A DNA stretch of 64,000 nucleotides, from NCBI RefSeq assembly GCF_016903815.1, contig NZ_CP069974.1, one strand, 5' to 3'. Shown here in pieces: positions 54,411 through 63,225 of the stretch (the first letter of the stretch is position 1; each line of letters opens with the position of its first letter). Both the position numbers and the translations under genes were made by a program. The stretch is from Escherichia coli. Lineage in GTDB: Bacteria; Pseudomonadota; Gammaproteobacteria; Enterobacterales; Enterobacteriaceae. The notes below the pieces were generated by a model, which saw nothing but the letters and a program-made list of their open reading frames with translations, was not told where the DNA came from and searched no databases.

Positions 54411-55480
<1,070 letters not shown>

Positions 55481-55939: not shown

Positions 55940-56746
55940 TCAGGATAATTGTTTCAGCATCGCAACCGCATCAGACTCCGGCATCGCAAACTGCACCCGG
56001 TGCCGGGCAGCCACATCCAGCGCAAAAACCTTCGTGTAGACTTCCGTTGAACTGATGGACTTATGTCCCATCAGGCTTTGCAGAACTTTCAGCGGTATAC
56101 CGGCATACAGCATGTGCATCGCATAGGAATGGCGGAACGTATGTGGTGTGACCGGAACAGAGAACGTCACACCGTCAGCAGCAGCGGCGGCAACCGCCTC
56201 CCCAATCCAGGTCCTGACCGTTCTGTCCGTCACTTCCCAGATCCGCGCTTTCTCTGTCCTTCCTGTGCGACGGTTACGCCGCTCCATGGGTATTTTCAGT
56301 GTTGCCACCATCGTCTGCAGCTGGCTGACGTACCAGGAGTCAGAGAGCGGAACCAGCCGGTGAGTCTGCTGACCGGCGGGCATTCTCCCCGCCGTCCTGG
56401 CAGCTTTTTCGGTCCGTTGTTTCAGGGTCGCAAGCTGCACAAACGGATACGGAGGCGCAAGCGAAAAATCCCCCCGCGTCAGCGCCAGTGCTTCATTAAT
56501 GCGTGCTCCGGTGTTCCACAGTGTGGCCAGCAGCATCTTGCGGTGCAGATCCGGGACGTAATGGAGCAGGGCACTCACTTCCGGAGCCAGCAGATATTTT
56601 GGCAGTTCATCATGGACCATCGACATCTGGCGAAGTGCCAGAGCTGCCGGATAATCAATGGCAACAGGCAGCGATGCAGGCTGCCCGGCAGAATACACTG
56701 CCGGTACCATGACTGCAGACTGGCTGTGTATAACGGAGCCTGACAT
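55940..56746 (-). CDS. resD: ResD site-specific recombinase (tyrosine recombinase, multimer resolution)
   Basis: 268 aa with C-terminal HTFRHSYA...Y motif. Confidence 0.85.
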   Translation of the reverse strand: MSGSVIHSQSAVMVPAVYSAGQPASLPVAIDYPAALALRQMSMVHDELPKYLLAPEVSALLHYVPDLHRKMLLATLWNTGARINEALALTRGDFSLAPPYPFVQLATLKQRTEKAARTAGRMPAGQQTHRLVPLSDSWYVSQLQTMVATLKIPMERRNRRTGRTEKARIWEVTDRTVRTWIGEAVAAAAADGVTFSVPVTPHTFRHSYAMHMLYAGIPLKVLQSLMGHKSISSTEVYTKVFALDVAARHRVQFAMPESDAVAMLKQLS

Positions 56747-57272
<526 letters not shown>

Positions 57273-57905
57273 AGCACACCTCTTTTTGACATACTTCGGG
57301 TATACATATCAGTATATATTCTTATGCCGCAAAAATCAGCGCGCAAATACGCATACTGCTATCTGGCTTTTAGTAAGCCTTATGTATTTTACCTTTCGTT
57401 ATGTTAACCAATAAAAATTAAAATCTGACTTATAAAAACAAAGCGTAATTACCGCATTCCCGTTTCGTATGGATCCGACTTTATTTGAATAAACGACTTT
57501 CCGGAAGTGTACAACGCTGAGAAAATCATCATATCGCTGTTTTCCGCCCCTGCACGGCGCATCACAGGTCAGGGAAATAACACAACATATAGTGTCATCA
57601 GCAGCTGAATCCGGCACCACATGTTGTGCTTACAGGAAGTGGCGTTGTGTGGGGGGGAGAGGAAGATCCGTAACTGCCGGAAACCGGATCTCAGAAGAGA
57701 AAAAGAAGAGTTGTTGCAAGATAAGCACAAAAAATGGTGGTTTGTTGAGATATGGTAATTATTGCTCAGTGGGCAAAATTCAGAACAGAGTTAGCCTGAA
57801 ATTGCAAAAAACAGGCCAGAAAAACTTTTTTCAGCTCATTTTCATCAACCGGCCTTAAAGGCTGCTTCGGATTTCCTAAATACAGTTTTACATAAGGAAC
57901 ATCGT

Positions 57906-58103
57906 ATGACTGTATTTCTCATGGCCGTTTTCTATGGCCTCTTAAAAACTGGCTCTCTCATTGCCCTACTTGTTGATGCCTATAAAGGCTGGACCTTGTT
58001 CTGGAAGAACTATGATCGACTCCCCCATATCTACCGTTCGCAATGGCGATATCAGCGACGCTTCATTCTCAAAAGAATCTGGAAACGCATCAGAACCGGC
58101 TAA
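57906..58103 (+). CDS. Small membrane protein, hydrophobic N-terminus and basic C-terminus (65 aa)
   Basis: RBS AAGGAA 7 nt upstream of ATG; convergent with HTH gene. Confidence 0.35.
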   Translation: MTVFLMAVFYGLLKTGSLIALLVDAYKGWTLFWKNYDRLPHIYRSQWRYQRRFILKRIWKRIRTG

Positions 58104-58384
58104 GCCGGTTCTTCCAGCAGCATCCCCAACCCGGCCAGCCAGCACAGACAGCACCAGGTGGTGAACACCATTCTGGTCTCGCCGGATTTCCACTTACGGA
58201 TGGTGCGCTCGTCCACATCTAGCCGGTTGGCCAGCTGGATATCTGTGAGCGGGATCAGCGCCCGGACCACGCTGACTTCACTGGCTGAAGGTGCCATCCA
58301 GCTCTCGCCCGAGCACAGTGTTTCAGGGTTAAATTTCTCTAGTTCTATCAGCCCCTGAACCTGACGGGCATTTTCTGCCTTCAT
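58100..58384 (-). CDS. HTH (XRE-like) DNA-binding protein with hydrophobic C-terminus
   Basis: 94 aa with LTDIQLANRLDVDERTIRKWKSGE helix-turn-helix; 19 bp downstream of the 377-aa gene. Confidence 0.55.
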   Translation of the reverse strand: MKAENARQVQGLIELEKFNPETLCSGESWMAPSASEVSVVRALIPLTDIQLANRLDVDERTIRKWKSGETRMVFTTWCCLCWLAGLGMLLEEPA

Positions 58385-58403
58385 ATGCGGTTAACCTTTC
58401 TGA

Positions 58404-59537
58404 TCAGGATTGCGACACACTTTGTACACGATGGGCAAGACGGCGCGTTTCTTCCACGGCCCTGAGTTCATTTGCTTTTTCTATCATTTCTGCGGTTGGT
58501 TCAGAAAGTTTTTCAAAAAACTCCTTAAACCTCTTTGCAACTGACTGCAGAGAAACACTGTCAGTTCTCGCTGTTTTAAGATTGGTGTAGACGAGGCGGG
58601 AAAGGGGTTTGGTCAGTTCCTTCCGTTCCATGTATCGTTTGAAGATCCAGAGATAAATATCAACCAGTTCCAGCCCGGCACTCATCGTTCCCGACTGGAA
58701 GACAAGCGGTTTTGCTGGCATGTTCTTCATATCCATGACAGGCAAACCCGGCCCCAGTGCCCACGGCTGTTCGCGGATCTGGTAGTAAAACTCGTTCAAC
58801 TCCCGCTGGGTGGTGTTGAACTGTGACTGCTGGTCAACAATGATATCTGCTTTCCGGTTCGGTGCCCCCAGACGAGAGCAGATCCCGTGCAAAACGGACT
58901 GAAAACCAATCATATTGGGCATGATCTGCAACTTTTCCTTATTGGTTTTGCAGTTGTACCCCAGCTCATCAAAGTTGACCATCGCCCAAGATAGGGCATC
59001 GGTAATGAGTTCAACTGAACGGGCATCACCCAGAGAGTGAACGCGCTGAAGCAGCACTCCACAAACCTCACTGAATAATGAGCAAGAACGTTCATCATGA
59101 GCCTCAAGACGGGCACGCCACGCTTTTTCAGCCAGCTCATCATCAAACAGATTAGACAGATTCAGCAGCAGGGGATAGCGCAGAGGGGTCCAGTAGGCAC
59201 TCCAGGGCACAACCGGATTCAGTCCCTGATCAAACACCTGGTCGAAGAACGAAATAATGGCGTGATCGCGCTTAACCACCTGCCAGATATCAAACCGTAT
59301 CCGGTGATTTTTCTGCAGGACCAGCAGCGTATCCACAACTTCTGAAAGGCGGTGCACGCCCAGTTCCGCAGCGTGCAGGCGCTCCACGCCCAGAGTTTTG
59401 CGTAATGCGGCAAGATCCGCTTCAGCAACCTTATCTAGGTCAGCCTCTGAGGACAGTACTCCGTAGGAGAGGATTGGCTGGGTTTTGTCAAAAAGGTTTC
59501 GGCCAGTCTGGCCTGTTTCATCCACATAAAAGTGCAT
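58404..59537 (-). CDS. DUF3800-like protein (377 aa), function unknown
   Basis: N-terminal FYVDETGQTG (conserved D-E motif), size in family range; assignment by recall only. Confidence 0.55.
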   Translation of the reverse strand: MHFYVDETGQTGRNLFDKTQPILSYGVLSSEADLDKVAEADLAALRKTLGVERLHAAELGVHRLSEVVDTLLVLQKNHRIRFDIWQVVKRDHAIISFFDQVFDQGLNPVVPWSAYWTPLRYPLLLNLSNLFDDELAEKAWRARLEAHDERSCSLFSEVCGVLLQRVHSLGDARSVELITDALSWAMVNFDELGYNCKTNKEKLQIMPNMIGFQSVLHGICSRLGAPNRKADIIVDQQSQFNTTQRELNEFYYQIREQPWALGPGLPVMDMKNMPAKPLVFQSGTMSAGLELVDIYLWIFKRYMERKELTKPLSRLVYTNLKTARTDSVSLQSVAKRFKEFFEKLSEPTAEMIEKANELRAVEETRRLAHRVQSVSQS

Positions 59538-59799
59538 TCAGATATCCTTTTCAAGGCAGGAGGAAAAGAAACGGCATAATTCAAATCAATGTAAAACCTT
59601 CCTGTTGCCGGCTGCAAGTGATCCTCTTAAATGAGTTTTCGGATCTAAGGAAGAGAGAAGAGGGATTATTGTATGAATGGCACAAAAAGCGACGGATTGT
59701 TGCGGTGAATAGATTATTGCTTAGGAAGCAAAATTTATAGTAATTGATAACTCTAATGCAATTAAACAGCGACCCCATCAGGGGTCACCGTAATTTTGA

Positions 59800-62700
59800 T
59801 CAGCGATGTTCAAACCGCGCCACTGGAGTATCAGTGATTTCCATCTCTATTTCCCAGAGCGTTTTCATCACACCTTCAAGTGGATCGTCGCTGCTGCGGT
59901 AGAAGGTATTGAAAAGGGTTCCATCCGGATACCTGAACAGCCTGAGTTCACCAAAGGATTCAGCACTGACCATAAGCGAAAACTCCTGTTCGGAATTGAG
60001 GACAAGGTAAATAAGACAGTTATTGATCCTGAAGGGCAGAGAGCGGCTACCCCTGGCCGATACATCAACATGTATGCTAAACGCGTCATGCCTTTCCGGC
60101 TGATAGACCAGTTCCCTCAGTTCCTCGCTGAAGCGGGAACCATAGATCACCAGAATGTAGTTATTCTGATCAGCGGACCGTTGCGCGACTTCCATTAACA
60201 GCGTTTCGAGGTTATTGACCTCAATCGTTAATTTAGCCTGTGACTGCCACAGTACATAATGCAGTCTGCGGAGAATATTTCTGTTCACTTCTGATACCGA
60301 AGGGAAATCTCCGTAGTCAGTCTGATTAAGCTCTCTGGCAACATACTCTTTGGAAACACCAACAGGAATATATATCGCCAGCCAGTTGCGATCACATTCT
60401 GAATTTTGAGTAAACGTGAAGTATTTAAGCAGAACATCTTCAGACAATGCCCCAGGAAGTTCATTTGTAAGACGAGCATCAGTGTTTCTCAGTCGAGCCT
60501 GGTCTACTTCAGCAGCAACGATATCTGCCGTTTTACTACGACTGAATACATCTATGTATTTATCCAGAACATCATTAAAGAACACCACATTCGTTGCATA
60601 ATCCGCTTCTGAAATGATATAACCTTCATAGGGAACTGAAGGGTCTCGTTTCAGTCGTTTAAGAATAGAAATTATTCTGTCTTTACTGGAATAGGAAAAC
60701 ACCCCTCCAGCCAGGGCTTCATTAACACGCTGTGTAACCTGCTCCGCAGGCCTTGCGAGCTTTATAGCCAGCAAGGCAAACGCCCCGTAGAGACTCCCTA
60801 AATCTTCATATTCCCCTGTATACATACGCCCGGGAATGTAAGGCCTTTCATTATATGAGTTCATAACCTCAATGGTTTCTGATAACCCGCTGTACCAGCT
60901 TGTATTCGTATGCAGATTGCAGTGCTCAATTCTCAGTATCATGTCAATGATATCGACAGAACGTCTGAATGCAGGCGTCAGCGTGTCATGTGTATCTCTA
61001 TCTTCATATAATTCAGACATAATGAGATGATTCACAAGATCGGCTAAGTCTATATTTTTTTGCGATTCAAAATGAGCAATAAGATACCCTGCCATTAACA
61101 ACCGCAAATCGGATAAGGCATTTGCAAACATAATGGACAAAGCGGCATCTTTTTTATACTTGCTGCCCCTGAGTAACATATTCCACTGCGGTTCTGTCTC
61201 CTTCAGGGACAGATAATCCGGAGTCAGGAAGAAACTGTGCCAGCGGTACTCTTCCTCCCAGTAACGTGTAAACCGGCTCTGATTAAACCAGAGGCAGAGA
61301 ACGTCGTGAGCATATCGCACGGAAGAGGCATTATCGGCAACCACTGACGGAATAAGAAGCCTGGCGGTATTATGCAGATGATACATCAGGCGGCCAGTAG
61401 AATCTTCACTCCCGGGTTTGCCAGTGATCGTGGTCATACTCCAGCCTTCCCACAGTCCGATATACCCGCGGATAAGGGCCTGGTGAGTCAGCTCCTGGCT
61501 GGCCGAGAGGGGGCCCCCCAGTCCCGCTTTCCACTCGTTTAACACATGCCACACCCTGAAAAGCGAGAGTAAAAACTGTCTGAAATCGGTAAAACACGTG
61601 CTCTGTGTTTTTCTGTACACACGCAATGGAATGAGCATCGATTCACGGAAATATTCGCCTGAATATTCCGTTGATTTTACGGATTCACGAAAAAACTTTC
61701 TCAATTCATAATGGAATGAATCGCTGAAAGTATGGCTAAAACCTGATTCTTTTACTTCATCCAGATAATTTTTATCGACCTCGTAATTGTAACTTCTTTT
61801 GATAGAGGTATAGGTATCTGTTAATCGTTCAATCCCTGTTCTGAAGACGCTAATATTTTTATCGTTAAGCGCATCGTAAGCCTCACCAAAGAAATCAAAA
61901 GTAATATCATCCAGATCCCTTTTGTTCTCAGGGCGCCCTGTTACAATACAACGACGCAATAACCACCGCCACAATCCTGAAACAGGCTTGACATTTCTCG
62001 ATGACAATAAAGTCAGTTCACCAGAACGAACACCAAAGGAGGGCAGAATGATAATTTCCGCATCCTGCCCATCTACCGCCTCTAGCCTTCTCAGTAGGAA
62101 TAAAAAAGGCCTTATATAAATATCAGTAACAACATCACCTTTACTGATATTAGATTTAACATGAAGCATATCGTCTTTCTCAGAAATTGAGTAAGGCAGT
62201 ATTTTAATATTACCGAGGTAATTTTGACCTACATGACCCCCCGGGTAACGCAGCCACGCCTGAATATATGCTTTTTGAATGTAGTCATCCACTATCTGAG
62301 ATAAAAAAAACTTATTCATTAGTCGATCGCGTTTGCTCTCATCCAGGACATTCAGACTGGAGACGAAGAACCAGATAGACAGAATAATATTGAAAAGCAT
62401 CCACACAAAAGCTGTTACGGCAAAAGAAGTATTAAGATATCCGTCACCTATAGATAACGTCATACCGCCCAGCACGACAAATGCAGCCAGTGAAAGACCA
62501 CTCAGGCCCGCAAACATATATCCGGAATGAAGTTGATACGCGGACTGAATATGGATCCTTGCTGATTTCTTTTGAAATAAAACACTTATAAGCCCCACAA
62601 CCAGCGGAAATACAATACCGATTATAGTCAACTGGCTACCCAGTAAATTAGACATCCAATCTGAAAGCTTGGTAATGCCCTTAAAATGCTGCACAGCGAA

Positions 62701-62919
62701 AGGTAGCAATACAGGGCGAAAATATTCGACCACGCCAACAGCCCCGAAGGCTGCGGACCATAGAACCAGCATAGCCCGGACGTAATGGGTGGAGCAGGAA
62801 ACAAGTATTCTCTCCACCGGGTTCCAGCGAAGTTTTTTGTAATCCCGGTTCGACTTCAGGCTCCGTCGGAGTTCAGCTCTCACCTGCCATGAGACACTTT
62901 TCAGAAGTTTTCCAAACAT
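59800..62919 (-). CDS. Large multi-pass membrane protein (1039 aa) of unknown function, AT-rich gene
   Basis: Uninterrupted 3.1-kb ORF; ~4 hydrophobic helices in the first ~190 aa, ~850-aa soluble region without recognisable Walker, HNH or PD-(D/E)xK motifs by eye; AT-rich by eye relative to flanking backbone. Confidence 0.7.
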   Translation of the reverse strand: MFGKLLKSVSWQVRAELRRSLKSNRDYKKLRWNPVERILVSCSTHYVRAMLVLWSAAFGAVGVVEYFRPVLLPFAVQHFKGITKLSDWMSNLLGSQLTIIGIVFPLVVGLISVLFQKKSARIHIQSAYQLHSGYMFAGLSGLSLAAFVVLGGMTLSIGDGYLNTSFAVTAFVWMLFNIILSIWFFVSSLNVLDESKRDRLMNKFFLSQIVDDYIQKAYIQAWLRYPGGHVGQNYLGNIKILPYSISEKDDMLHVKSNISKGDVVTDIYIRPFLFLLRRLEAVDGQDAEIIILPSFGVRSGELTLLSSRNVKPVSGLWRWLLRRCIVTGRPENKRDLDDITFDFFGEAYDALNDKNISVFRTGIERLTDTYTSIKRSYNYEVDKNYLDEVKESGFSHTFSDSFHYELRKFFRESVKSTEYSGEYFRESMLIPLRVYRKTQSTCFTDFRQFLLSLFRVWHVLNEWKAGLGGPLSASQELTHQALIRGYIGLWEGWSMTTITGKPGSEDSTGRLMYHLHNTARLLIPSVVADNASSVRYAHDVLCLWFNQSRFTRYWEEEYRWHSFFLTPDYLSLKETEPQWNMLLRGSKYKKDAALSIMFANALSDLRLLMAGYLIAHFESQKNIDLADLVNHLIMSELYEDRDTHDTLTPAFRRSVDIIDMILRIEHCNLHTNTSWYSGLSETIEVMNSYNERPYIPGRMYTGEYEDLGSLYGAFALLAIKLARPAEQVTQRVNEALAGGVFSYSSKDRIISILKRLKRDPSVPYEGYIISEADYATNVVFFNDVLDKYIDVFSRSKTADIVAAEVDQARLRNTDARLTNELPGALSEDVLLKYFTFTQNSECDRNWLAIYIPVGVSKEYVARELNQTDYGDFPSVSEVNRNILRRLHYVLWQSQAKLTIEVNNLETLLMEVAQRSADQNNYILVIYGSRFSEELRELVYQPERHDAFSIHVDVSARGSRSLPFRINNCLIYLVLNSEQEFSLMVSAESFGELRLFRYPDGTLFNTFYRSSDDPLEGVMKTLWEIEMEITDTPVARFEHR

Positions 62920-63225
62920 AGATATCCTGCGTATTACATAAGAAATTTTATGAATAATAAGCGGTAGGAACCTTTTTTTCTCTGGAAAATGTCACCCGAT
63001 ACCCTTCATACAGGCTTTGTCATCCTAAAATCCGGTTTAACCTTTTTTCGGATCTCCGATAAAAAAGAAAGAAATAGAGATATGCATAAACATATGCCTG
63101 GCATCTACATATGCTACCGCTATACATATGCCACACATCTGCCTATACTAAACATATGCACACACCCGGTGCTTTGAATATTCCGGATATGTTTCACATA
63201 TCCATATGCTCGGGAGAGAAAGAAC

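Follow-up and report, generated by a model that had tools for sequence, protein, structure and literature searches.

The DNA studied here is IncF (RepFIA) plasmid DNA of Escherichia coli, and it lies in a window, that is, the whole stretch analysed, of 64,000 nucleotides (RefSeq assembly GCF_016903815.1, contig NZ_CP069974.1). Past the genes repE, resD and ccdB/ccdA, a short open reading frame on the plus strand runs tail to tail into a gene for a helix-turn-helix (HTH) protein, the last member of a minus-strand operon. The short ORF has a RefSeq (PGAP) entry, WP_000215657.1 'hypothetical protein', and the minus-strand genes that follow are listed there as a 94-aa hypothetical protein, a DUF3800 protein, a 1039-aa hypothetical protein and then vapBC. 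Every copy of the small ORF carries only 'hypothetical protein' as annotation, and the gene is often missing from PLSDB tables while being called by PGAP in many records; the 94-aa HTH gene has been named 'korC' by some submitters. A literature search with the RefSeq accessions of the pair found no mention of them. The interval 57300-58500, which holds the small ORF, is 100% identical in many E. coli plasmids, mostly multireplicon IncF. The features of the region are as follows.

54411-55166: repE
55940-56746: resD
56747-57272: ccdB/ccdA
57658-57805, plus strand: upstream element, copy 1 (nhmmer E=1.2e-32), present in 11/11 aligned loci
57851-57863, no strand assigned: palindrome GGCCTTAAAGGC(C/T), candidate operator over a weak -35 (TTAAAG)
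57877-57882, plus strand: candidate -10, TAAATA, present in all lineages, 3/6 consensus positions
57894-57898, plus strand: Shine-Dalgarno sequence AAGGA, 7 nt before the small-ORF ATG, invariant in 11/11 loci
57906-58103, plus strand: small-protein gene, ATG start, 65 aa, MTVFLMAVFYGLLKTGSLIALLVDAYKGWTLFWKNYDRLPHIYRSQWRYQRRFILKRIWKRIRTG, intact
58100-58384, minus strand: KorC-like Xre-family HTH gene, 94 aa, last gene of the cargo operon
58404-59537, minus strand: DUF3800 cargo gene, 377 aa, N-terminal D-E motif (Pfam PF12686, E=4e-6)
59619-59738, plus strand: upstream element, copy 2 (inverted repeat 59620-59645 plus repeats; nhmmer E=1e-24)
59800-62919, minus strand: orphan multi-TM gene, 1039 aa, a frequent neighbour of the pair, no Pfam or PADLOC match
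63030-63071, plus strand: upstream element, copy 3 (inverted repeat only, at 63029-63054; nhmmer E=8e-5), 110 nt before the start of the 1039-aa gene

A small membrane protein family of Enterobacterales

A preliminary description of this DNA had singled out a 65-aa ORF with a good ribosome-binding site, a hydrophobic N-terminal helix and a strongly basic tail, ending in the stop region of the HTH gene, and each of these properties is borne out. The frame is intact behind its AAGGA. The maximum Kyte-Doolittle hydropathy over 19 residues is 1.92 (residues 5-23; 2.05-2.46 in the homologues), and a single transmembrane (TM) helix is predicted at about residues 3-25. An AF2 model built on a 21-sequence alignment (pLDDT 78) has helices at residues 2-37 and 39-64 with a kink at Pro40. 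Residues 28-65 carry a net charge of +10 (11 K/R) together with 9 W/Y/F, the C-terminal helix being basic and aromatic with the motif W-R-Y-Q-R-R-F-I, and a TM helix followed by a tail of +7 to +10 occurs in all lineages of the small ORF. Its TAA (58101-58103) and the minus-strand TAG of the HTH gene (58100-58102) lie in a 4-nt overlap of the two genes. The protein is thus predicted to be a single-pass inner-membrane protein with an amphipathic C-terminal helix in the cytoplasm, the N-terminus being placed outside on the strength of the positive-inside rule.

In 11 divergent copies, with identity down to 40%, the frame, the ATG and the Shine-Dalgarno sequence are kept, the indels are multiples of three, and the dN/dS ratio (Nei-Gojobori) is 0.1-0.3 for most pairs at a dS of about 0.4-2. 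On these grounds 57906-58103 is almost certainly a real gene, and purifying selection on it is shown by the comparison of these copies. That it should be a chance frame in the conserved 3' UTR or regulatory DNA of the HTH operon, as its shortness, its patchy annotation and the failure of our scan to find a consensus promoter might suggest, is hardly credible when dN/dS stays so low at saturated synonymous divergence, the reading frame and its start signals survive at 40% protein identity, and PGAP calls the gene in so many records.

The best-conserved part of the protein (residues 28-62) is not the TM segment, which is variable yet hydrophobic, but the cytoplasmic tail, with the core Y-x-G-W-T-L-F-W-K-N-Y-D-x-L-P-H-I-Y-R-S-x-W-R-Y-Q-R-R-F-I-L-[RK]-R-I-W-K-R.

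A search of 5.8e9 proteins returned 65 clusters of homologues, all from Enterobacterales (Escherichia, Klebsiella, Salmonella, Serratia, Hafnia, Pantoea, Morganella, Cronobacter and Pectobacterium). The carriers are plasmids, ICEs and integrase-borne islands, and only 5 loci were found in species-representative genomes. A divergent lineage, 40-49% identical, occurs on pLVPK-type Klebsiella plasmids (locus L010) and in Morganella (L018). The protein had no match in PADLOC or, at E<=1, in Pfam, NCBIfam or PHROG, and no homology to described toxin families (Hok, Ldr, TisB, Ibs, ShoB, Fst and others) was found. A profile search of 1.84e9 representatives gave 26 matches, all within its own family, and found no distant relatives; an Rfam scan of 57000-58600 gave only chance-level matches; and among IMG/VR viral contigs we found relatives of neither the small ORF nor the HTH protein. 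By these searches the small ORF is an orphan, lineage-restricted small protein family.

The convergent HTH partner

The HTH protein has a weak Pfam HTH_3 match and a match to phrog_8351 (E=3.8e-13). Its AF2 model (pLDDT 83) has as Foldseek neighbours HipB, HigA2, Aca1/2/7/10, C.Kpn2I and ImmR (probability 0.9-0.99, with weak E-values), the nearest solved folds being Xre-type autorepressors. Of the KorC proteins, the comparison was with that of pOXA-48, to which it is ~33% identical over residues 27-86. The C-terminal, DNA-binding half is 76-98% identical across loci.

The pairing with the HTH protein put forward in the preliminary description is strongly supported. A convergent small ORF or its remnant accompanies the HTH gene in all 21 HTH loci, the window included, with an overlap of 4-11 nt, and conversely 21 of the 23 small-ORF loci are paired with the HTH gene; no lineage lacks the stop overlap, despite differences in the codons that overlap. 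By tblastn against PLSDB, the window-type small ORF is present in 762 records and the L010 type (the pLVPK-type copy, mostly in Klebsiella) in 622, and the HTH gene, at an identity of at least 60%, in 1,337; each gene is therefore on about 1,350 PLSDB plasmids and the pair on roughly 1.9% of all plasmids in PLSDB, counts that are consistent with a roughly one-to-one co-occurrence. Among complete E. coli genomes the pair region was found in 428 of 5,426 (484 of its 492 places being on plasmids). Plasmid carriers of the pair include ST131-type IncF resistance plasmids and Klebsiella virulence plasmids. More distant relatives of the HTH protein, such as the 33% identical KorC of pOXA-48, come without the small ORF. 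Overall, a functional tie between the small ORF and the HTH gene is very probable.

Variable cargo, a repeated upstream element and transcription signals

The HTH gene is the 3'-terminal gene of its operon. Its start either lies 19 nt past the end of the gene before it, as here with the DUF3800 gene, or the two overlap by up to 4 nt. The genes upstream of it, the cargo, vary from locus to locus: DUF3800 in the window, L010 and L015; DUF4238 plus a 530-aa protein in L007, L012 and L027; DUF4238 plus a TIR-like protein matching PADLOC PDC-S35 (E=1.9e-60) in L011; and a 339/345-aa protein of no known family in L003 and L016. This cargo looks defence-like, since DUF4238 was protective against T7 in a study of P2/P4 hotspots (bioRxiv 10.1101/2021.01.21.427644), type VII retrons have DUF3800 as their RNase H2-like effector domain (PMC7736814), and the TIR-like protein matches a PADLOC family. 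Against PADLOC-DB v2 the L011 cargo alone gave a significant match; the small ORF, the HTH protein, the DUF3800 protein and the 1039-aa protein gave none.

The small ORF and the N-terminus of the HTH protein have recombined freely between these loci. Between the window and the second module of L011 the small ORF is 98% identical, the HTH N-terminus only 38%, and the cargo is different; between the window and L003 the HTH N-terminus is 82% identical and the cargo is unrelated; and small-ORF identity does not correlate with HTH N-terminal identity (r = -0.03). Since the identity matrices are mosaic elsewhere, the conserved unit is shown, at the level of sequence comparison, to be the leader (~250 nt), the small ORF and the HTH domain, with the cargo as a mosaic. 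We considered the HTH protein as a cargo-specific antitoxin and rejected this, as unrelated cargo is found beside near-identical HTH N-termini, and members of one cargo family come with N-termini only 43-51% identical; the HTH N-terminus is not cargo-specific and a direct neutralisation of the cargo is therefore unlikely.

The 1039-aa protein encoded farther along the minus strand has N-terminal TM helices, and its gene has a hairpin terminator of its own (about 59765-59780). Homologues that are 26% identical are divergent from the small ORF in L003 (Klebsiella plasmids) and in the chromosomal islands L027-L030, where they adjoin P4-type integrases. Two further arrangements were observed. On an IncI-gamma/K1 plasmid (L011, 3358-7867) two modules stand in tandem, the first made of a 5'-truncated small ORF, the HTH gene and DUF3800, the second of an intact small ORF, the HTH gene, DUF4238 and a 367-aa TIR-like protein (PDC-S35). 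In plasmid pEC958 (133797-135464; L009, 38798-40465) a DUF3800 gene occupies the equivalent position by ccdA and faces a convergent gene for a 170-aa hypothetical protein in place of the HTH/small-ORF pair. The TraDIS data for pEC958 (PMC4398462), which we considered as evidence on essentiality, are uninformative because that plasmid is without the pair; no mapping of its essential gene EC958_A0140 onto the pair locus was found. The I-complex TraDIS paper (PMC10286972) makes no mention of the pair genes.

Some 250 nt before the small-ORF ATG are conserved even in the 40%-identity lineages and hold, in order, an inverted repeat, three ATT[A/G]TTG(C) repeats, TTGC-N8-GCAA, an A/T-rich stretch, the palindrome, TAAATAC and the Shine-Dalgarno sequence. 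The inverted repeat of copy 1, GATCCG-N14-CGGATC (57665-57690), contains two GATC sites 22 bp apart. A nhmmer model built on the distal 150 nt of this leader located the two other copies in the window, where the GATCCG-N14-CGGATC pattern occurs three times against 0.2 expected. Copy 2 lies 83 nt upstream of the DUF3800 start, abuts the terminator and the 3' end of the 1039-aa gene, and is followed by no small ORF. Comparable placements recur at other loci: in L003, L007 and L015 an inverted-repeat copy precedes the first cargo gene by 63-83 nt, in L010 an additional one lies about 400 nt upstream, and in L011 one full element forms the divergent region between the DUF3800-HTH operon and the next small ORF. 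From its positions the repeated element looks operator-like, or like a cassette boundary, heading each transcription unit of the island. An element in the same orientation was also observed beyond the window end (L001, 17017-17129), upstream of an AAA_13 ATPase gene.

Closer to the gene, the palindrome GGCCTTAAAGGC(C/T) is unique in the window, is present in 11/11 loci and always stands 12-13 nt from TAAATAC; as judged from its position, the form GGCCTTAAAGGCC is a candidate operator over the putative -35 of the small ORF. A scan upstream of the small ORF found no sigma-70 consensus promoter, and inspection by hand gave only a weak TTAAAG-16-TAAATA. Two other candidate signals were discarded: a sigma-54-like promoter, whose GG-N10-GC spacing does not fit, and an anti-Shine-Dalgarno hairpin (TTTCCT...AAGGAA), which is not conserved in the L010/L018 lineage.

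The terminator scan found no intrinsic terminator between or after the convergent genes, so the transcripts of the small ORF and the HTH operon probably overlap. A near-perfect palindrome, AACCGGC-TAA-GCCGGTT (58091-58107), sits on both overlapping stops and has no T-run on either strand; it is present in loci of the window/L003 type and absent from L007-type loci, and was rejected as a conserved terminator. At 57340-57379, between the ccdA promoter region and the module, there are two weak terminator-like hairpins, one per strand, the only candidate stops for minus-strand read-through from the cargo-HTH operon. Two repeat structures flank the module. At about 57580-57630, just left of element copy 1 and between the rfsF/oriV-1 region and the module, an inverted repeat CACAACATAT ... 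ACATGTTGTG is shared by the window, L007, L012 and L013, not by all loci. At 63087-63210, between the 1039-aa gene start and vapB, iteron-like direct repeats comprise ACATATGC-containing units at 17-nt spacing and further copies, candidates for the vapBC operator or for a binding array of another kind.

Possible roles of the pair and relation to known systems

The preliminary description also took the ORF as typical of small membrane toxins and as a possible member of a toxin-regulator pair with the HTH protein, a reading that is plausible yet short of proof. The reading that we put first, tentatively and as somewhat short of probable, is that of a kil-kor-like or toxin-repressor switch, in which a membrane peptide is silenced by a KorC-like repressor and by convergent transcription. 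The HTH protein would bind GATCCG-N14-CGGATC, or the palindrome GGCCTTAAAGGCC that covers the weak small-ORF promoter, or both, and cargo-HTH transcription, having no terminator, would run antisense through the small ORF; together they would keep the membrane protein silent. Should the supply of repressor fail, through plasmid loss or the shut-off of host transcription by a phage, the derepressed peptide would enter the inner membrane and arrest or kill the cell. A broader proposal, to which we give little credence, makes the pair the 'addiction/abort core' of plasmid and island cassettes bracketed by copies of the inverted repeat, in which effectors (DUF3800, DUF4238, the TIR-like protein, the 1039-aa membrane protein, AAA_13) would be swapped by recombination. 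One global repressor, acting by operator binding and by interference from convergent transcription, would restrain these effectors together with a membrane-killing peptide and so create a bistable kill switch serving both element stability and abortive infection.

Natural disruptions of the small ORF beside an intact HTH gene are common and bear indirectly on the question of toxicity. In one form, indexed in 104 collection blocks, an IS3-family element has inserted after codon 39 and the HTH and DUF3800 genes are intact; another, indexed in 211, has a small ORF truncated to 36 aa beside an intact HTH gene. A 5'-truncated small ORF (about the first 24 codons gone) with an intact HTH gene was present in 7 of 60 sampled E. 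coli records, while the reverse, a truncated HTH gene beside an intact small ORF, was seen in none of the 60, an asymmetry that comes from samples and is not a census. Several of the 5'-truncated copies belong to tandem arrays in which another pair is intact. The small ORF lacks its HTH gene in only two contexts, a Cronobacter locus (L008) in which the HTH gene is deleted and an E. coli chromosomal locus (L025) in which it is a frameshifted pseudogene. Both of these small ORFs read through at the C-terminus and have substitutions where conservation is otherwise at least 90% (W47Y/R48Q and G28S in L025; T30I and I42L in L008). The small ORF is not unconditionally lethal, as the two loci keep a full-length copy without a functional HTH gene.

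The chromosomal island L029 (1535-7883) has an intact pair beside fragments of the 1040-aa gene, of DUF4238 and of the 530-aa gene, which hints that the pair is kept there independently of the cargo. In pOXA-48, korC, a distant relative in another genetic setting, tolerates no transposon insertions, its silencing destabilises the plasmid, and the authors suspected it of repressing a toxic function (PMC12365149). Taken together, the disruption asymmetry, the changes in the HTH-less copies, the persistence of the pair in L029 and the essentiality of korC are consistent with a repressed toxin. Other observations argue against the toxin reading. The conserved part is the 35-aa basic cytoplasmic tail rather than the TM segment, a pattern seldom seen in pore-forming type I toxins and one that would agree with the binding of protein or nucleic acid; neither a consensus promoter nor homology to a known toxin was found in our searches. 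Against the switch as such, the r of -0.03 and the free recombination of small ORF and HTH N-terminus give no sign of specific protein-protein pairing.

The same conserved tail is the starting point for the first alternative, in which the protein is a non-toxic, membrane-anchored modulator whose basic tail would bind the acidic HTH protein, or the DNA or RNA of that protein, and which would act as an anti-repressor or sensor coupling membrane or infection signals to cargo expression. Here the best-conserved part of the small protein (residues 28-62) would face the one conserved partner in an otherwise mosaic locus, the HTH C-terminal domain; the inverted repeat common to several operons suggests a regulon in need of an input signal, and loss of the small ORF is tolerated, as it would be for a dispensable modulator. 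On the other hand, the convergent overlap is unnecessary for such a role, and a pure regulator of cargo would not explain why the pair outlasts the decayed cargo in L029. We consider this alternative unlikely, albeit one that deserves real weight.

Small single-pass inner-membrane proteins commonly act in exclusion. The small protein could have an independent membrane function (superinfection or entry exclusion, a block to phage DNA injection, or partnership with the 1039-aa protein) and be merely co-regulated or linked with the HTH gene. It is embedded among defence-like genes (DUF4238, PDC-S35, DUF3800) and often divergent from the 1040-aa multi-TM gene. Its linkage to the HTH gene is, however, much tighter than that to the 1039-aa gene or to any cargo, no homology to known exclusion proteins was found in Pfam or PHROG, and the family is absent from the viral contigs searched; we regard an independent function as quite improbable.

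A type I-like toxin under RNA control, in which the unterminated cargo-HTH transcript would be the antisense antitoxin and the HTH protein would have no direct part, appears to us decidedly unlikely. The convergent genes, the overlapping stops and the lack of a detectable terminator on either strand fit such control, as does the persistence of this arrangement in all lineages despite differing overlap codons. Yet neither a dedicated antisense promoter or sRNA nor an Rfam match was found, the small ORF keeps an operator-like palindrome of its own, and a type I toxin would not typically be 65 aa long or have a conserved soluble tail.

Of the known systems, the repressed-toxin reading comes closest to the kil-kor loci of RK2/RP4, RA3 and pOXA-48. 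The region resembles them in having a small plasmid-borne HTH protein labelled korC and operator-like palindromes, with a candidate role as operators, repeated before several operons; KorC of RA3 is a global regulator of several modules (PMC8124265). It differs in that pOXA-48 KorC is only ~33% identical over 60 residues and pOXA-48 has no convergent small ORF, and in that the putatively controlled genes are defence-like cargo and an orphan membrane peptide rather than klcA/kle. To our knowledge, a kil candidate that is convergent and overlaps the stop of its repressor gene is not a feature of described kil-kor loci.

With the type II toxin-antitoxin systems and related controllers (HigBA2, HipBA, Aca-acr, C-proteins of restriction-modification systems) the pair shares the HTH fold, nearest to HipB, HigA2, Aca1/2/7/10 and C.Kpn2I, and the position of the HTH gene downstream of potentially harmful effectors in an operon, as in higBA and acr-aca. 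Unlike in those systems, the candidate toxin is convergent with the HTH gene on the opposite strand and is not co-transcribed with it, and the HTH N-terminus is 82% identical between loci with unrelated cargo. The likeness to type I systems (Hok/Sok, TisB/IstR-1, Ldr, Ibs, Fst) lies in a small, hydrophobic, plasmid-borne single-TM peptide with a charged tail, at 65 aa on the long side for the class, in the nearby addiction modules ccdAB and vapBC, and in probable overlapping antisense transcription. The differences are the size of 65-70 aa, the highly conserved 35-aa cytoplasmic domain, the lack of any sequence relationship, and a partner that is a protein-coding HTH gene, no dedicated antisense sRNA having been found. 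In the single-gene lysis protein E of phiX174 a TM helix at the N-terminus precedes a basic C-terminal domain, and the small protein is similar in size and has this layout too. The resemblance is architectural only: there is no homology or PHROG match, the small protein is plasmid-borne and absent from viral contigs, and its conserved part is the basic tail, not the TM helix.

Overall, by the searches run here, the small ORF and its pair belong to no described toxin, toxin-antitoxin or defence family, and they are best described as a variant of the toxin-repressor or kil-kor logic built on an orphan protein. Should the small protein prove to be a membrane toxin under repressor control, these plasmids would have in it one more determinant of addiction or abortive infection that helps them persist, the essential KorC-like repressors of some plasmids would be explained, and the leader, small ORF and HTH domain would form a conserved handle for the swapping of defence genes. 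Even if it is non-toxic, it represents a well-supported new family of small membrane proteins with a clear genetic partner.
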